DNA of 64,000 bases from Escherichia phage vB_EcoM-G3F7. The notes under the pieces were generated by a model. It did no database searches. It saw nothing but the letters and a program-made list of their open reading frames with translations, and was not told the DNA's origin. Of this stretch, positions 2,432-57,165 are shown piece after piece; positions within the stretch are counted from its first letter, which is position 1, and every line of letters starts with the position of its first letter. The position numbers and the translations under genes were made by a program. The DNA is taken from sequence record MZ234035.1, one strand, 5' to 3'.

Positions 2432-3319
2432 ATGTCAGTAGTAATTAATAATGTCAATGCAGTAATTAAATCTTTAGTTAATAAAAAATTAAATGAATGG
2501 ACTGTACTTCGTCGTGGAGAGCCAGATAAATTTTTTCATAGATTTAACCCAACTTTGGATTTGAATGTTATTGACAGAGATGTTCATGCTGAAATTTTAG
2601 ATAAATTTAAAGTTGATATTGGGTTTGGGTTAGATAAACATTTGCAACGAACAAACGGATCTGGAATGGGTTTATCTAATCGCATCATGAAAGCCCTTAA
2701 TAAAATTGGAGCGTTGTCTCGTATTAATGCGAGTGAAATCCTTCGCAATTATAATAAAGGATATGACCTTTATGGTCGACTAATGCCGAAATTATCATTT
2801 GACCAAATGATTGCGGATTTGTGGGAAAATCAACGACGATTATTAGCATTAGGCGCTCGATTAGCTAAAGGTCTAGATAAACAAATGATTTTTAAGACCA
2901 ATAATACAGAAGACCTTAAATGCTTTAAATTTAGTACTCGTGGAGATGATTATTACATCAGAGCTCGCTCTACAGATTATGTTAATATGGGGCATCATCT
3001 CTGTTTAGCTTTTGAAGTTTTAAAAGAAGCCGGAACATTAGAATATGTGTCTGGTGCTAAATGTCCGATTGGTTCAAATTGCATTTTAATTTATCGCCCA
3101 GATGAATCCAGTTCAACTAAATTACCTACAAAACCTGTACCAGTTCGCAGTAATGAAAAACATTCTGAACAAATTGCTTATTTTAATAAGCAGATTGAAG
3201 AGCTAAATATTTCTATTCAGCAATATGATGATGAAATTTTCAGACTATCTGGATTGAGTAGTAAAGCTAAATCTGAGCGTGAAAAATTAATTAAAATCGT
3301 TGATTTACTTAAATCTTAA
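2432..3319 (+). CDS. hypothetical protein with C-terminal coiled coil (paralog A)
   Basis: ATG at 2432 after GAGGA RBS; C-terminal heptad-rich tail. Confidence 0.55.
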   Translation: MSVVINNVNAVIKSLVNKKLNEWTVLRRGEPDKFFHRFNPTLDLNVIDRDVHAEILDKFKVDIGFGLDKHLQRTNGSGMGLSNRIMKALNKIGALSRINASEILRNYNKGYDLYGRLMPKLSFDQMIADLWENQRRLLALGARLAKGLDKQMIFKTNNTEDLKCFKFSTRGDDYYIRARSTDYVNMGHHLCLAFEVLKEAGTLEYVSGAKCPIGSNCILIYRPDESSSTKLPTKPVPVRSNEKHSEQIAYFNKQIEELNISIQQYDDEIFRLSGLSSKAKSEREKLIKIVDLLKS

Positions 3320-3327
3320 GGAACACC

Positions 3328-4356
3328 ATGAAAACTCGTTCTCAAATTGAAGATATGGTTCGTAATGCCAGCTATACTCGTGATGTTATGACATTTTTGT
3401 GTGAAAATAATTTAGACCCTGATAAAGTTAATCGTGTTATTCATCACTTTAAGTATACGAATAGCAGTGAATGGGTGCGTAATTTTAGTAAAGCAGGGTA
3501 TATTACACAAATGACTGCTCGTGAACAGCTCACCGATTTCTGTAAAACTATTGATTATAAAAATCCTTTGATTGTTCAAGGCGTTGGTCAAAGTAAGGTC
3601 GATTTATCATCTGGATTTTTCAATCCAAATCATTATCGTATTGAATGGAGATTTATTGCTCTATTCCGTAAACAATTAAAGCAAATTTTGTCTACTGCTA
3701 GTCGATTAAAAGGCTCTGATATTAACTTAAAGAACCTGAAATTTGATGGTTATACTCTTCAGATGGAAGTAAGACCGTTAAAAGAAAATAATAGAACTGC
3801 ACGAATTAGCTTTAAGCCTAATACTAAAAATTCTCTTTCAATTTGTGAATGTCTTAAATCACAGCTGACAGAAGCATTTAAGTATATGGATGTTGTTGCT
3901 GCTGTTCAATCTAAGATTTTACCTCGTTTTGAGCGAAATTGGGAACATACAACAACATATGAACTTGATATGATCGTTTCATTTAAATATGAATTTTTGA
4001 GAAAGGATGAAATTGTTCAAGAGAAAAAGCAGGAAGTGCAAGATACCTTAAATTTAAATTTATCCAATTACTTATCAAACGATCCTAAATTTTGGATGTA
4101 TAGCTCAAGCAATATAGATGCATGTAAACTTAATAAAGTGAGTTTTCTTCCTACTGAAAATTCAAATTTTAAACCTGTAGAAAAATGGCACGCTGACGCG
4201 ATTGAGAAGTCTCTTAAGGCAGTAGATGATGAACTCGTTAAAGCGACCAATGAAGTGCTAGAAGCTGAAAAGGCGTTAGAACAAGCTCAGTCAAGGGTTC
4301 AAAATCTGACAAAGCAACGTTCTAAACTGAACAATGCACTAAATGCACTGAACTAG
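3328..4356 (+). CDS. hypothetical protein with C-terminal coiled coil (paralog B)
   Basis: 342-aa ORF; tail ...LEAEKALEQAQSRVQNLTKQRSKLNNALNALN; core resembles next two ORFs. Confidence 0.6.
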   Translation: MKTRSQIEDMVRNASYTRDVMTFLCENNLDPDKVNRVIHHFKYTNSSEWVRNFSKAGYITQMTAREQLTDFCKTIDYKNPLIVQGVGQSKVDLSSGFFNPNHYRIEWRFIALFRKQLKQILSTASRLKGSDINLKNLKFDGYTLQMEVRPLKENNRTARISFKPNTKNSLSICECLKSQLTEAFKYMDVVAAVQSKILPRFERNWEHTTTYELDMIVSFKYEFLRKDEIVQEKKQEVQDTLNLNLSNYLSNDPKFWMYSSSNIDACKLNKVSFLPTENSNFKPVEKWHADAIEKSLKAVDDELVKATNEVLEAEKALEQAQSRVQNLTKQRSKLNNALNALN

Positions 4357-46939: not shown

Positions 46940-47311
46940 ATGTTTAAAATCGGTAAGAAATATCGCATTCGCGAAGGTGAAGAAAAGAAATATCTATTTT
47001 CTGCTATTTATAGGAATGGTTCTATTAATGCTGTAATATCTACAAGCGAATTTATCGTTGAAGATATGAAAGGTAATAATGTTACAATGATTAGTACAGC
47101 ATCTGGAAATGACGGAAAAATTCTTCACAGTTTTCAGAGTAATGTTCTAATTTATGATGAAGAATTTGACTTCTTCGAAGAAGTTCCCGAAGGTTTTGCT
47201 TTTGAATGCACTATCACTATGAAATCTGGTGACCCTCTTTCTTTTACAGTTAAAGATGAAGGAAGTCGCTTGAGAATTATTAGTCTTCTTCAAGCCATTA
47301 AATTTAAGTGA
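46940..47311 (+). CDS. hypothetical protein
   Basis: 123-aa ORF. Confidence 0.45.
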   Translation: MFKIGKKYRIREGEEKKYLFSAIYRNGSINAVISTSEFIVEDMKGNNVTMISTASGNDGKILHSFQSNVLIYDEEFDFFEEVPEGFAFECTITMKSGDPLSFTVKDEGSRLRIISLLQAIKFK

Positions 47312-47577
47312 AAATTATGAAATATATTAATCGTTCTATCGCGGCATTAGTATTAGCAGTGTCTTTAGTAGGATGTACTGATGCTGATAATGCAACCAAA
47401 GTTTTGTCTTCAAGCGGTTTTACTAATATTGAAATCACTGGATATAACTGGTTCGGTTGTTCTGAAAATGATTTCCAACATACTGGATTTCGTGCTATTG
47501 GACCTACTGGGCAGAAAGTAGAAGGAACAGTATGTTCTGGGCTGTTCTTTAAGGATTCAACTATTCGTTTTAAATAA
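47308..47577 (+). CDS. hypothetical lipoprotein
   Basis: 89 aa; signal peptide with LVGC lipobox; followed by terminator. Confidence 0.45.
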   Translation: MKIMKYINRSIAALVLAVSLVGCTDADNATKVLSSSGFTNIEITGYNWFGCSENDFQHTGFRAIGPTGQKVEGTVCSGLFFKDSTIRFK

Positions 47578-47597
47578 AAGGCCTTCGGGCCTTTAGC
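47577..47597 (+). terminator. intrinsic terminator upstream of gene 39
   Basis: AAAGGCC-TTCG-GGCCTTT. Confidence 0.6.
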
Positions 47598-47619
47598 TTT
47601 ATGATTACCGGAGTATAAT
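47594..47619 (+). promoter_or_regulatory. MotA-box-like middle promoter upstream of gene 39
   Basis: AGCTTTA box, 12-nt spacer, TATAAT. Confidence 0.45.
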
Positions 47620-47643
47620 ATTCCCGAAACCAAACGAGGATAA

Positions 47644-49464
47644 GTGATGATTAAGAATGAAATTAAAATTCTGAGCGATATTGAACATATCAAAAAGCGT
47701 AGCGGCATGTACATTGGCTCTTCTGCTAATGAAATGCATGAGCGCTTTCTGTTTGGTAAATGGGAAAGTGTTCAGTATGTACCTGGTCTTGTTAAGCTTA
47801 TTGATGAAATTATCGATAACTCAGTAGATGAAGGTATTCGTACTAAGTTTAAATTCGCAAATAAAATTAATGTTACTATTAAAAACAATCAAGTAACAGT
47901 TGAAGATAACGGTCGTGGTATTCCACAAGCGATGGTTAAAACACCTACCGGTGAAGAAATTCCTGGTCCAGTTGCTGCATGGACTATTCCAAAAGCGGGT
48001 GGTAACTTCGGTGATGATAAAGAACGCGTCACCGGCGGTATGAATGGTGTTGGTTCTAGTTTGACAAACATTTTTTCTGTGATGTTTGTCGGTGAAACTG
48101 GTGATGGTCAAAATAATATTGTAGTTCGTTGTTCAAATGGCATGGAAAATAAATCATGGGAAGATATTCCTGGAAAATGGAAAGGAACTCGTGTTACTTT
48201 CATTCCAGATTTTATGTCATTTGAAACTAATGAATTATCTCAAGTTTATCTTGACATTACACTAGATCGTCTCCAGACACTTGCTGTTGTTTATCCTGAT
48301 ATTCAATTTACCTTTAATGGTAAAAAGGTTCAGGGCAATTTTAAGAAATATGCACGACAGTATGATGAACATGCTATCGTTCAAGAACAAGAAAATTGTT
48401 CTATTGCGGTTGGTCGTTCACCCGACGGTTTTCGTCAATTAACATACGTCAATAACATTCATACTAAGAATGGTGGCCATCACATTGACTGTGTTATGGA
48501 TGATATTTGTGAAGACCTTATTCCACAAATCAAACGCAAGTTCAAAATTGATGTAACTAAAGCACGCGTTAAAGAATGTTTGACTATCGTTATGTTTGTT
48601 CGTGATATGAAAAACATGCGATTTGATTCTCAAACTAAAGAGCGTTTGACTTCTCCATTTGGTGAAATCCGTAGTCATATTCAGCTTGATGCTAAAAAGA
48701 TTTCACGTGCTATTTTGAATAATGAAGCAATTCTGATGCCAATTATTGAAGCTGCTTTGGCTCGTAAATTGGCGGCAGAAAAAGCAGCAGAAACTAAAGC
48801 AGCTAAAAAGGCATCTAAAGCTAAGGTTCATAAACATATCAAAGCGAATCTTTGTGGTAAAGATGCTGATACTACATTGTTCTTGACTGAGGGTGATTCT
48901 GCTATCGGATATCTTATTGATGTTCGTAATAAAGAACTTCATGGTGGTTATCCATTACGTGGTAAAGTTCTCAACAGTTGGGGTATGTCATATGCTGATA
49001 TGCTTAAAAACAAAGAACTATTTGATATTTGCGCAATCACTGGATTAGTTCTTGGTGAAAAAGCTGAAAACTTGAATTATCATAATATTGCTATTATGAC
49101 TGATGCTGACCATGATGGTCTAGGAAGCATTTATCCTTCTCTGCTTGGATTTTTTAGTAATTGGCCAGAACTGTTTGAGCAAGGAAGAATTCGCTTCGTC
49201 AAAACTCCTGTAATCATCGCTCAGGTCGGTAAAAAACAAGAATGGTTTTATACAGTCGCTGAATATGAGAGTGCCAAAGATGCTCTACCTAAACATAGCA
49301 TCCGTTATATTAAAGGACTTGGCTCTTTGGAAAAATCTGAATATCGTGAGATGATTCAAAACCCAGTATATGATGTTGTTAAACTTCCTGAGAACTGGAA
49401 AGAGCTTTTTGAAATGCTCATGGGAGATAATGCTGACCTTCGTAAAGAATGGATGAGCCAGTAG
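47644..49464 (+). CDS. 39: topoisomerase II large subunit gp39 (GyrB-like), unsplit
   Basis: 606 aa continuous; ATPase motif EIIDNSVDE; no gene 60 split or mobA insert. Confidence 0.9.
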   Translation: MMIKNEIKILSDIEHIKKRSGMYIGSSANEMHERFLFGKWESVQYVPGLVKLIDEIIDNSVDEGIRTKFKFANKINVTIKNNQVTVEDNGRGIPQAMVKTPTGEEIPGPVAAWTIPKAGGNFGDDKERVTGGMNGVGSSLTNIFSVMFVGETGDGQNNIVVRCSNGMENKSWEDIPGKWKGTRVTFIPDFMSFETNELSQVYLDITLDRLQTLAVVYPDIQFTFNGKKVQGNFKKYARQYDEHAIVQEQENCSIAVGRSPDGFRQLTYVNNIHTKNGGHHIDCVMDDICEDLIPQIKRKFKIDVTKARVKECLTIVMFVRDMKNMRFDSQTKERLTSPFGEIRSHIQLDAKKISRAILNNEAILMPIIEAALARKLAAEKAAETKAAKKASKAKVHKHIKANLCGKDADTTLFLTEGDSAIGYLIDVRNKELHGGYPLRGKVLNSWGMSYADMLKNKELFDICAITGLVLGEKAENLNYHNIAIMTDADHDGLGSIYPSLLGFFSNWPELFEQGRIRFVKTPVIIAQVGKKQEWFYTVAEYESAKDALPKHSIRYIKGLGSLEKSEYREMIQNPVYDVVKLPENWKELFEMLMGDNADLRKEWMSQ

Positions 49465-49493
49465 TTTACTTTACCACAAGGATGTGGTATAAT
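49464..49493 (+). promoter_or_regulatory. T4-type early promoter upstream of rIIA region
   Basis: GTTTAC, 18-nt spacer with TGG, TATAAT; overlaps gene 39 stop. Confidence 0.6.
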
Positions 49494-49518
49494 TAATTGG
49501 GCAAATGAGGATATTGAA

Positions 49519-49722
49519 ATGAAATCATATAAAGTAAATTTAGAACTTTTTGATAAAGCAGTTCATCGAGAATATAGAATCATTCAACGCTTTTTCGATA
49601 TGGGAGAAGCTGAAGAGTTTAAAAACCGCTTTAAGGATATTAGAGATAAAATTCAATCCGACACCGCAACTAAAGATGAACTACTAGAAGTTGCTGAAGT
49701 TATTAAACGCAATATGAATTAA
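49519..49722 (+). CDS. hypothetical protein (rIIA.1 position)
   Basis: 67-aa ORF between 39 and rIIA after early promoter. Confidence 0.5.
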
Positions 49723-49732
49723 TGAGGAAATT

Positions 49733-51910
49733 ATGATTATCACCACTGAAAAAGAAACAATTCTTGGTAATGGTTCTAAATCAAAAGCATTTAGCATCAC
49801 AGCATCTCCTAAAGTATTTAAAATTCTATCATCTGATTTGTACACAAACAAGATTCGCGCAGTAGTCCGTGAATTGATTACCAACATGATTGATGCCCAT
49901 GCTCTCAATGGAAATCCTGAAAAATTTATCATTCAAGTTCCTGGACGTTTAGACCCACGATTTGTTTGTCGAGATTTTGGTCCGGGTATGAGTGATTTTG
50001 ATATTCAGGGTGATGATAATTCTCCTGGGTTGTATAATTCATACTTCAGTTCATCTAAAGCTGAATCTAATGACTTTATTGGCGGATTTGGTTTAGGTTC
50101 TAAATCTCCGTTTAGTTATACTGATACGTTTAGTATTACTTCGTATCATAAAGGTGAAATTCGTGGTTATGTAGCTTACATGGATGGTGATGGCCCACAG
50201 ATTAAACCTACATTCGTAAAAGAAATGGGTCCAGATGATAAAACTGGTATTGAAATCGTAGTTCCAGTTGAAGAAAAAGACTTTAGAAACTTTGCTTATG
50301 AAGTTTCTTATATCATGCGACCATTCAAAGATTTGGCTATCATTAATGGTCTTGACCGCGAAATTGATTATTTTCCGGATTTTGATGATTATTACGGCAT
50401 AAATCCAGAAAGATACTGGCCTGATCGTGGTGGATTATATGCTATCTATGGCGGTATTGTTTATCCTATCGATGGTGTTATTAAAGACCGTAACTGGCTA
50501 AGCATTCGTAATGAAGTGAATTACATTAAGTTTCCAATGGGTTCGCTTGATATTGCTCCATCACGCGAAGCTCTTTCACTAGATGATCGTACTCGTAAAA
50601 ATATTATTGAACGAGTTAAAGAACTCAGTGAGAAAGCATTTAATGAAGATGTAAAACGATTTAAAGAATCTACATCTCCTCGTCACACATATCGTGAATT
50701 GATGAAGATGGGATATTCTGCTCGAGATTATATGATTAGTAATTCAGTCAAATTCACGACTAAAAATCTGTCATATAAAAAGATGCAGAGCATGTTTGAA
50801 CCTGACAATAAGTTATGTAATGCAGGAGTTGTGTATGAAGTAAATCTTGATCCTCGACTGAAGCGCATTAAGCAAAGTCATGAAACTTCAGCCGTTGCAT
50901 CAAGTTATCGTCTGTTTGGTATTAATACAACAAAAATTAATATCGTTATTGATAATATTAAAAATCGTGTTAATATTGTTCGTGGATTAGCACGAGCGTT
51001 AGATGATAGTGAATTTAATAACACTTTGAATATTCATCATAATGAGCGTCTTCTGTTTATTAATCCAGAAGTAGAATCGCAGATTGATTTGCTTCCTGAT
51101 ATTATGGCGATGTTTGAAAGTGATGAAGTTAACATTCATTATTTGTCAGAAATTGAAGCTTTAGTTAAAAGCTATATTCCAAAGGTAGTTAAAAGTAAAG
51201 CTCCTCGTCCTAAAGCTGCTACAGCATTTAAGTTTGAAATTAAAGACGGGCGCTGGGAAAAAGAGGAATTATTTACGCTCACATCAGAAGCAGATGAAAT
51301 TACTGGGTATGTAGCGTATATGCATCGTTCTGATATTTTCTCTATGGATGGTACTACATCTCTTTGTCATCCATCTATGAATATTTTGATTCGTATGGCT
51401 AATCTTATTGGCATTAATGAGTTTTATGTTATTCGTCCGCTTTTGCAGAAAAAGGTAAAAGAACTCGGTCAGTGCCAATGTATTTTTGAAACTCTGCGTG
51501 ATTTATATGTAGATGCTTTTGATGATGTAGATTATGATAAGTACGTAGGTTATTCAAGTTCAGCTCAACGATATATTGATAAAATTATCAAGTATCCTGA
51601 ACTAGATTTTATGATGAAGTACTTCAGTACAGATGAAGTTTCTGAAGAATATACACGACTCGCTAATATAGTTAGTTCATTGCGCGGTGTATATTTTAAT
51701 GGTGGAAAAGATACCATCGGTCATGATATCTGGACAGTAACTAATCTTTTTGATGTATTATCAAATAATGCTTCAAAAAACAGTGATAAAATGGTTGCTG
51801 AGTTTACCAAGAAATTCCGTATTGTTTCCGACTTCATCGGATATCGCAACTCTTTAAGTGATGATGAAGTTTCCCAAATCGCTAAAACTATGAAGGCCCT
51901 TGCGGCCTAA
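49733..51910 (+). CDS. rIIA: rIIA protein
   Basis: 725 aa; N-terminus [20 protein letters not shown]...; matches T4 rIIA. Confidence 0.95.
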
Positions 51911-52888: not shown

Positions 52889-53083
52889 ATGTTAGGTTAT
52901 CAAGCACGAGTAAAAGAAGAATACGATCAATTAATGCTCAAAATTAATGCACTTAGCAATTTTTTAGAAAGCACAAAGTTTCTAACGGTTAGTGCAGTTG
53001 AGCAAGAATTGCTACTTTCGCAGTTTATCTCAATGAAATCTTACGCAGATTGTTTAGAAAAAAGAATTGCACAATTCAAATAA
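52889..53083 (+). CDS. hypothetical protein
   Basis: 64-aa ORF flanked by terminator hairpins. Confidence 0.45.
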   Translation: MLGYQARVKEEYDQLMLKINALSNFLESTKFLTVSAVEQELLLSQFISMKSYADCLEKRIAQFK

Positions 53084-55836: not shown

Positions 55837-57165
55837 ATGCAACTGAATAATCGTGATTTAAAAAGTATCATTGATAATGAAGCATTGGCTTATGCTATGT
55901 ACACGGTTGAAAATCGTGCCATTCCAAATATGATTGACGGATTTAAGCCAGTTCAACGATTTGTTATTGCTCGAGCTCTTGATTTGGCACGAGGAAATAA
56001 AGATAAGTTTCACAAACTCGCTTCTATCGCAGGCGGTGTAGCGGACCTTGGATATCATCATGGTGAAAACTCTGCGCAAGACGCAGGTGCTTTGATGGCT
56101 AACACTTGGAATAATAACTTTCCTCTGTTAGACGGTCAAGGAAACTTTGGTTCTCGTACTGTCCAAAAGGCAGCAGCAAGTCGTTATATTTTTGCTCGTG
56201 TAAGTAAAAATTTCTATAACGTATATAAAGATACTGAATATGCTCCAGTACATCAAGATAAAGAACACATTCCGCCTGCTTTCTATTTGCCTATTATTCC
56301 TACTGTTCTTCTTAATGGCGTTTCCGGTATTGCAACTGGTTATGCAACTTACATTCTTCCTCATAGTGTTTCTTCTGTCAAGAAAGCTGTACTGCAAGCT
56401 CTTCAAGGAAAGAAAGTAACTAAACCGAAGGTAGAATTCCCAGAATTTCGTGGTGAAGTCGTTGAAATTGATGGGCAATATGAAATTCGTGGAACATATA
56501 AGTTTACTTCACGAACTCAAATGCATATCACTGAGATTCCATATAAGTATGATCGTGAAACTTATGTGAGTAAAATCTTAGACCCGCTTGAAGATAAAGG
56601 CTTCATTACATGGGATGATGCTTGTGGTGAGCATGGCTTTGGCTTCAAAGTTAAATTCCGAAAAGAATACTCTTTGAGCGATAATGAAGAAGAACGCCAT
56701 GCAAAAATTATGAAAGACTTCGGGTTGATTGAGCGTCGTTCCCAGAATATTACCGTCATTAATGAGAAAGGAAAGCTGCAAGTTTACGATAATGTAGTTG
56801 ATTTAATCAAAGACTTCGTTGAAGTTCGTAAAACTTATGTCCAAAAACGAATTGATAACAAAATCAAAGAAACTGAATCAGCATTTCGTTTAGCTTTTGC
56901 CAAGGCACATTTCATTAAGAAAGTAATTTCAGGTGAAATTGTTGTACAAGGTAAAACTCGCAAAGAACTGACCGAAGAACTTTCTAAAATTGATATGTAT
57001 TCTTCTTATGTTGATAAACTAGTTGGAATGAACATTTTTCATATGACTTCCGACGAAGCAAAGAAACTTGCTGAAGAAGCTAAAGCCAAAAAAGAAGAAA
57101 ACGAATATTGGAAAACTACTGATGTAGTTACAGAATACACCAAAGATTTAGAGGAAATCAAATGA
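55837..57165 (+). CDS. 52: topoisomerase II medium subunit gp52 (GyrA-like)
   Basis: 442 aa; matches T4 gp52 length and sequence as recalled. Confidence 0.9.
   Translation: MQLNNRDLKSIIDNEALAYAMYTVENRAIPNMIDGFKPVQRFVIARALDLARGNKDKFHKLASIAGGVADLGYHHGENSAQDAGALMANTWNNNFPLLDGQGNFGSRTVQKAAASRYIFARVSKNFYNVYKDTEYAPVHQDKEHIPPAFYLPIIPTVLLNGVSGIATGYATYILPHSVSSVKKAVLQALQGKKVTKPKVEFPEFRGEVVEIDGQYEIRGTYKFTSRTQMHITEIPYKYDRETYVSKILDPLEDKGFITWDDACGEHGFGFKVKFRKEYSLSDNEEERHAKIMKDFGLIERRSQNITVINEKGKLQVYDNVVDLIKDFVEVRKTYVQKRIDNKIKETESAFRLAFAKAHFIKKVISGEIVVQGKTRKELTEELSKIDMYSSYVDKLVGMNIFHMTSDEAKKLAEEAKAKKEENEYWKTTDVVTEYTKDLEEIK

Follow-up and report, generated by a model that had tools for sequence, protein, structure and literature searches.

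The large subunit of DNA topoisomerase II is encoded in phage T4 by two genes, 39 and 60, which raises the question whether the corresponding locus of the phage analyzed here holds the split or the continuous form of the gene and, in the latter case, how the continuous form is to be explained. In the following, the window denotes the whole stretch of 64,000 nt that was analyzed. We are highly confident that its gene 39 is the T4-like phage topoisomerase large subunit gene in the uninserted form that is also found in T2 and T6, and no observation of the analysis contradicts this reading. According to the mechanism that we propose, the MobA homing-endonuclease element would never have entered this gene 39 allele. 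The element has taken the place of 64 nt in T4 and in some 40 further sequenced phages, where it splits the gene into 39 and 60, adds about 70 foreign residues and carries a 50-nt bypass that blocks self-cleavage. The product of the unsplit gene would form an A2B2 complex with gp52, i.e. a two-subunit enzyme unlike the three-subunit gp39/gp60/gp52 enzyme of T4. That gene 39 is not split in T2 and T6 has been known since the 1980s-90s. The feature in the window is thus not new. It has been described before, the deposited record includes its annotation, it is the majority state, and its importance is slight beyond correct annotation.

Reading frame of gene 39 and its closest relatives

An uninterrupted frame on the + strand extends from 47644 to 49464. 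Counted from a GTG it comprises 606 codons, ends with the stop TAG at 49462-49464 and contains no internal stops. The sequence-only reading of this DNA had described the locus as a single ORF of 606 codons; the frame is indeed intact and has this length from the GTG, but the gene has 605 codons from ATG 47647. Gene 39, the unsplit DNA topoisomerase II large subunit gene (GyrB-like), was therefore placed at 47647..49464 on the + strand (605 aa plus stop), in agreement with the deposited CDS and with the alignments to T4, T2, T6 and PDB entries. ATG 47647 is almost certainly the start because of the Shine-Dalgarno spacing, the deposited CDS (47647..49464), the N-terminus MIKNEIK of the T4 protein and the length of both T2 and T6 gp39, which is 605 aa. 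The Shine-Dalgarno sequence GAGG (47636..47639, + strand) was read from the sequence and is conserved in T4, T2 and T6; it lies 7 nt ahead of ATG 47647 and 4 nt ahead of GTG 47644. The GTG was rejected as a start on the basis of this spacing, the deposited annotation and the N-termini of the T2, T4 and T6 proteins. Besides, ORFs overlapping gene 39 in other frames or on the other strand reach at most 96 aa and are without support, and they were treated as chance.

The window is 100% identical at the DNA level, coordinate for coordinate, to MZ234038.1 (Escherichia phage vB_EcoM-G3F10), and it is also 100% identical to MZ234031.1. In MZ234038.1 the interval 47647..49464 is annotated as "DNA topoisomerase large subunit", and the record is assigned to the species Tequatrovirus gee4498 and not to Tequatrovirus T4.

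For the comparison with T4 we used BLASTP against the T4 proteins translated from NC_000866. Residues 1-473 of the gene 39 product correspond to T4 gp39 1-473 (98.3% identity, gapless), and residues 472-605 correspond to T4 gp60 27-160 (95.5%, gapless, E = 3e-95). A single protein thus covers first gp39 and then gp60 of the orthologous T4 enzyme, which bears out the statement that the gene 60 split is missing here. Against the gp39 of re-sequenced T4, residues 1-473 show 5 differences. Two stretches of the T4 proteins are without counterpart in the window protein, namely the last 43 residues of gp39 (474-516) and the first ~26-30 residues of gp60. The alignment with T4 gp39 plus gp60 and with T2/T6 gp39, which had been suggested as a check, is collinear, and the C-terminal part is homologous to gp60 as expected. 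However, this part had been given as the C-terminal 160 residues, and it amounts to about 130-134, because the first ~30 residues of T4 gp60 are encoded by the element and are absent here.

The similarity to the unsplit proteins is even closer. T2 gp39 is identical at 603/605 positions (99.7%) and T6 gp39 at 602/605 (99.5%), both of equal length and without gaps. T2 gp39 differs from the window protein at F70L and N428D only, and T6 gp39 at D173T, N428D and Q526H. At the DNA level, T2 and T6 gene 39 diverge from the window by about 3.5%, and most of these changes are silent. For T2 this comprises 67 nucleotide differences within gene 39; as they give just 2 amino-acid changes, the comparison indicates that purifying selection acts on the whole uninterrupted frame. 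T2 and T6 also resemble the window in their domain order, their flanks (39.1 upstream; rIIA.1 and rIIA downstream) and their two-subunit arrangement with gp52. The position of gene 39 between 39.1 and rIIA.1/rIIA is conserved.

Domain architecture and subunit composition

All domains expected of a GyrB-like subunit are encoded on the + strand within the one frame. The GHKL ATPase domain (residues 47-149; 47785..48093) was recognized by Pfam PF02518 HATPase_c with E = 2e-9, and its motifs, read from the sequence, are intact: the N-box EIIDNSVDE (47806-47832), DNGRGIP (47905-47925) and GGMNGVGSS (48034-48060). It is followed by the GyrB transducer domain (residues 250-384; 48394..48798; PF00204 DNA_gyraseB, E = 1.4e-13), which includes an intact QTK loop at 48631-48639. 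The Toprim core (48889..49119) lies on one polypeptide, with EGDSA at 48889-48903 (residues 415-419) and DADHDG at 49102-49119 (residues 486-491), both intact, and the TOPRIM_C domain (residues 519-604; 49201..49458) matches PF16898 with E = 4.2e-7. In T4 the Toprim motif EGDSA is located on gp39 and the DxDxD motif on gp60, whereas in the window both motifs are part of the same chain.

The partner subunit is present as well. Gene 52, encoding the GyrA-like protein of 442 aa (55837..57165, + strand; Pfam PF00521 DNA_topoisoIV, E = 9.1e-77), lies about 6.4 kb downstream of gene 39. Among known structures, PDB 8ylu, which together with related entries represents T6 gp39, matches window residues 1-605 with 1383 bits; PDB 8yo3 is an engineered T4 gp39-gp60 fusion. 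Cryo-EM structures exist for the T6 enzyme (PDB 8ylu), and T6 gp39 and gp52 were reported to form an active heterotetramer (PMC11461880). According to the same study T2 and T6 have two-subunit enzymes and T4 alone has a three-subunit enzyme, and the insertion of ~70 aa in the T4 Toprim domain hangs outside the domain and has little effect on activity (PMC11461880). We infer that the gene 39 product would supply the ATPase/Toprim part of a type IIA topoisomerase of A2B2 composition, which would relax DNA with ATP during phage replication, because it is 99.5% identical to the structurally and biochemically characterized T6 enzyme.

The gene 39 product was also compared with cellular enzymes. Human TOP2A/B and yeast Top2 gave full-length alignments with E of about 1e-56 to 1e-60. 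ParE and GyrB aligned over the full length too, in accordance with the same GHKL ATPase/transducer/Toprim architecture in the cellular type IIA B subunits. GyrB, however, is much longer than the gene 39 product, and by sequence score eukaryotic topoisomerase II, whose N-terminal half is the counterpart of the gene 39 product, is closer than gyrase. T-even topoisomerases relax DNA and do not supercoil it.

A discrepancy between T4 records was noted on the upstream side of the catalytic QTK loop. The T4 reference (NC_000866/AF158101) gp39 has MRLIRQTK, whereas the window (48619-48642, residues 325-332), T2 and T6 have MRFDSQTK. At the DNA level the difference adjoining the loop is a compensated -1/+1 frameshift (ATGCGATTGATTCGTCAA vs ATGCGATTTGATTCTCAA). 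Re-sequenced T4 (MT984581) reads MRFDSQTK, so that the difference is probably due to an old sequencing error in gene 39 of the T4 reference record.

The insertion site and the history of the unsplit allele

In the alignment with T4 the homology is broken at a single place. Window positions 47315-49064 align to T4 5661-3911 with 96.0% identity, and positions 49129-49950 align to T4 2793-1972 with 97.8%. Between these blocks T4 has 1117 nt, compared with 64 nt in the window (49065-49128), and this is the sole break. From the homology break and the junction alignments, 49065..49128 (+ strand) is the parental segment of 64 nt that is replaced in T4 by the ~1.1-kb MobA element, consisting of CTE, mobA, NTE, homR and the 50-nt bypass. 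At the upstream junction the break follows ...GGT GAA AAA GC (Ala473). At the 3' end of the T4 segment there is a homR copy of 48 nt, of which 35 (73%) are identical to the window. In T4 this is followed by the 50-nt coding gap (TAGCCTTCGGGC...ATTATTGGA) and, beyond the gap, by 9 further diverged bases (TTAGGTTCT vs CTAGGAAGC in the window). The position that corresponds to the take-off site is GGT in the window (Gly491, 49117-49119), directly followed by CTA (Leu492), so that a bypass would sit at 49119|49120, whereas T4 has the take-off codon GGA and then TAG. Matched GGA take-off and landing codons with a UAG after take-off were not found in the window. Altogether, the T4 features missing in the window comprise the ~1.1-kb element, mobA, the 43-aa C-terminal extension of gp39, the 30-aa N-terminal extension of gp60, the homR-type polymorphisms and the 50-nt gap.

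We further searched the whole 64-kb window for parts of the element. A tblastn search of this DNA with the intact 272-aa MobA of HY03 gave nothing above chance level (best E = 3.3), and the same was observed for the T4-specific CTE/NTE peptides (tblastn, whole window, best E 0.84). In blastn-short searches of the whole window, the 1117 nt of the T4 element gave chance matches of 13-21 nt only (best E 0.22) and the 50-nt bypass gave chance matches of 11 nt only (best E 0.48). A hidden hit-and-run scar or an endonuclease relocated elsewhere in the 64 kb was rejected on the basis of these chance-level matches, which all have E of at least 0.22. A scan with Rfam models at the gathering threshold resulted in 0 matches in the window and 0 in the T4 locus, i.e. 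the real T4 bypass itself is undetected by the Rfam models. The sequence-only reading had called the locus undisrupted, with neither an inserted endonuclease nor a bypass element. All three statements hold: the ORF is contiguous and collinear with T2 and T6 and no element sequence is present in the 64 kb, the search with HY03 MobA remained at chance level, and Gly491 runs straight into the CTA codon while the bypass cassette finds 11-nt chance matches only.

The anatomy of the element has been described in detail. Manning & Atkins reported that the MobA element of ~1.1 kb deletes a parental segment of 64 nt and adds a C-terminal extension of ~43 aa to ORF1 (bioRxiv 10.1101/2022.08.31.505936). 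ORF2 receives a unique segment of 30 aa and a 16-aa N-terminal extension from homR, which is 67-81% identical to the parent, and clade 1 has 9 extra nt beyond the bypass (bioRxiv 10.1101/2022.08.31.505936). The 'parental' Topo2L alleles, e.g. that of RB14, encode 605 aa, and their insertion site spans residues 466-473 through G491 (bioRxiv 10.1101/2022.08.31.505936). The window fits these alleles fully with its 605 aa, its 64-nt segment and its homR value of 73%, which lies within 67-81%, and no difference between the window allele and the parental Topo2L class was detected. By its sequence, gene 39 of the window is another parental-class allele.

To estimate how common the unsplit form is, we used a probe of 301 nt (window 48950-49250) centered on the insertion site, which had matches in 499 phage records; a site was counted as contiguous when one place covered at least 80% of the probe. 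A contiguous, i.e. unsplit, site was found in 454 of the 499 records (about 90%). Since the uninserted allele is this frequent, an allele that never received the element is the simplest reading. The T4 insert, with NC_000866 2780-3790 as query, was found in 43 records. Every T4 record returned by this search carries the insert, and the insert-bearing records comprise T4 isolates as well as other species, e.g. HY03 (Tequatrovirus hy03), whose mobA is an intact ORF of 272 aa, and pSe_SNUABM_01 (Tequatrovirus snuabm). The unsplit form is the rule; the split reflects the polymorphic presence of a mobile element and is not a trait of T4 only. The split as a marker exclusive to the T4 species was rejected, as Tequatrovirus hy03, Tequatrovirus snuabm and further species also have the insert. 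This bears on the proposal that the unsplit gene marks the phage as not T4 sensu stricto. The absence of the insert does exclude T4, and the taxonomy agrees, but taken by itself the unsplit state is of little weight for taxonomy, given that the element is mobile and that phages other than T4 also carry the split.

The T4 records differ in their description of mobA. In the T4 reference (2971-3767) it is annotated as a remnant of 37 aa and a separate gp60.1, and over the insert this record exceeds other T4 records by 11 nt in length. In re-sequenced T4 (MT984581, 2971-3756) a mobA ORF of 261 aa is annotated, which is still termed defective; the ORF of HY03 has 272 aa. The degree of mobA 'pseudogenisation' in T4 thus depends on the T4 record that is chosen.

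A continuous gene could in principle also have arisen by reversion, if the lineage had formerly carried the MobA element and a recombination or back-conversion with an uninserted co-infecting phage had then removed it without residue. The element is mobile and present in several Tequatrovirus species, and T-even phages recombine freely with one another. However, no scar is seen at the site, where the window and T2 have the same sequence in the 64-nt segment as well as in its flanks, and no CTE, NTE, homR-type polymorphism or bypass remnant is left. 'Hit-and-run' clades that lost the endonuclease have been reported and would be a precedent for such a loss, but these cases retain CTE/NTE (bioRxiv 10.1101/2022.08.31.505936). 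A clean back-conversion would leave no mark in the sequence. The large majority held by the uninserted allele among the phage records speaks against a reversion, which we consider very improbable. If it were true, gain and loss of the cassette would be a two-way polymorphism within Tequatrovirus. Even less probable, to the point of being negligible, is an artefact of assembly or annotation in which the insert was, for example, collapsed or omitted. Nothing was found in its favor. Two independent genome records show 100% identity in this region, the contiguous arrangement with a gene of 1818 nt recurs in hundreds of phages that were sequenced independently, T2 and T6 among them, and the protein encoded by the intact reading frame is 99.5-99.7% identical to those of these two phages. 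We therefore keep to the reading that the element never entered this allele.

An uninserted allele is also a potential target of the element. According to the preprint, the nick that MobA introduces into the uninserted T2 allele lies close to the center of the homR equivalent, ~20 nt upstream of the bypass position, and carriers are protected from MobA by the bypass insert and not by the homR polymorphisms (bioRxiv 10.1101/2022.08.31.505936, citing Bonocora et al. 2011). Over codons 468-499 (49048-49143) the window DNA is the same as that of T2, and there is no bypass insert ~20 nt downstream of the reported nick region. Since T2, whose DNA is the same in the vicinity of the reported nick region, is the recipient used experimentally, we predict that the phage is sensitive to MobA as a recipient, and that co-infection with a mobA+ phage could lead to its cleavage and conversion. 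Its T2-identical target region would make the phage usable as a recipient when homing or marker exclusion is studied experimentally.

Flanking DNA and neighboring genes

Downstream of gene 39 the arrangement is as proposed before, with a promoter-like site followed by the ORF upstream of rIIA. This site of the sigma-70/T4-early type (49465..49493, + strand) adjoins the stop codon and consists of TTTACT, 17 nt, TATAAT and an upstream TG; with 10/12 consensus matches it is the best of the region, in which the promoter scan as a whole returned 6 sites, i.e. fewer than the 10.2 in shuffles. By the T4 consensus this site is a reasonable candidate for an early promoter. It is followed by rIIA.1 (49519..49722, + strand; 67 aa), which matches Pfam PF24210 T4_RIIA1 with E = 1.4e-33 and has its T4 counterpart at the same position, and rIIA starts thereafter at 49733. 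The 60 nt from the stop of gene 39 to the ATG of rIIA.1 are 100% identical in T4, T2 and T6.

Upstream of gene 39 a terminator-like hairpin, AAAGGCC-TTCG-GGCCTTT with a UUCG tetraloop (47577..47594, + strand), straddles the last base of the 39.1 stop codon (47575-47577). This hairpin between 39.1 and 39 is identical in T4, T2 and T6, and it was missed by the consensus terminator scan owing to its weak T-tail. It is directly followed by a candidate middle-type promoter of gene 39 (47595..47619, + strand), in which a MotA-box-like AGCTTTA (47595-47601) is separated by 12 nt from the -10 sequence TATAAT (47614-47619). The site is kept in T4, T2 and T6, the only changes being 2 bases of the spacer in T2, and its arrangement presumably fits the T4 middle-promoter consensus. 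The hairpin and the MotA-box-like site could plausibly act as a terminator and middle-promoter pair for gene 39.

Gene 39.1 (47317-47577, + strand), directly upstream of gene 39, is an ORF of 86 aa that starts with MKYINRSIAALVLAVSLVGC. Its N-terminus resembles a lipoprotein signal peptide with a lipobox cysteine, and the search of its product against Pfam gave no match. In the T4 reference annotation 39.1 has 65 aa, and the 86-aa form is present in re-sequenced T4, T2 and T6. Between 39.2 and 39.1 the window has a further ORF of 123 aa (46940-47311, + strand). T6 has a counterpart of the same size (372 nt) and T2 an ORF of 318 nt at this position; in T4 there is none, and 39.2 lies closely after 39.1. 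The phages thus differ by a small indel polymorphism in the neighborhood of gene 39. On the other side, just past rIIB, a short CDS at 52889-53083 (+ strand) is annotated as 'endonuclease' in the deposited record.
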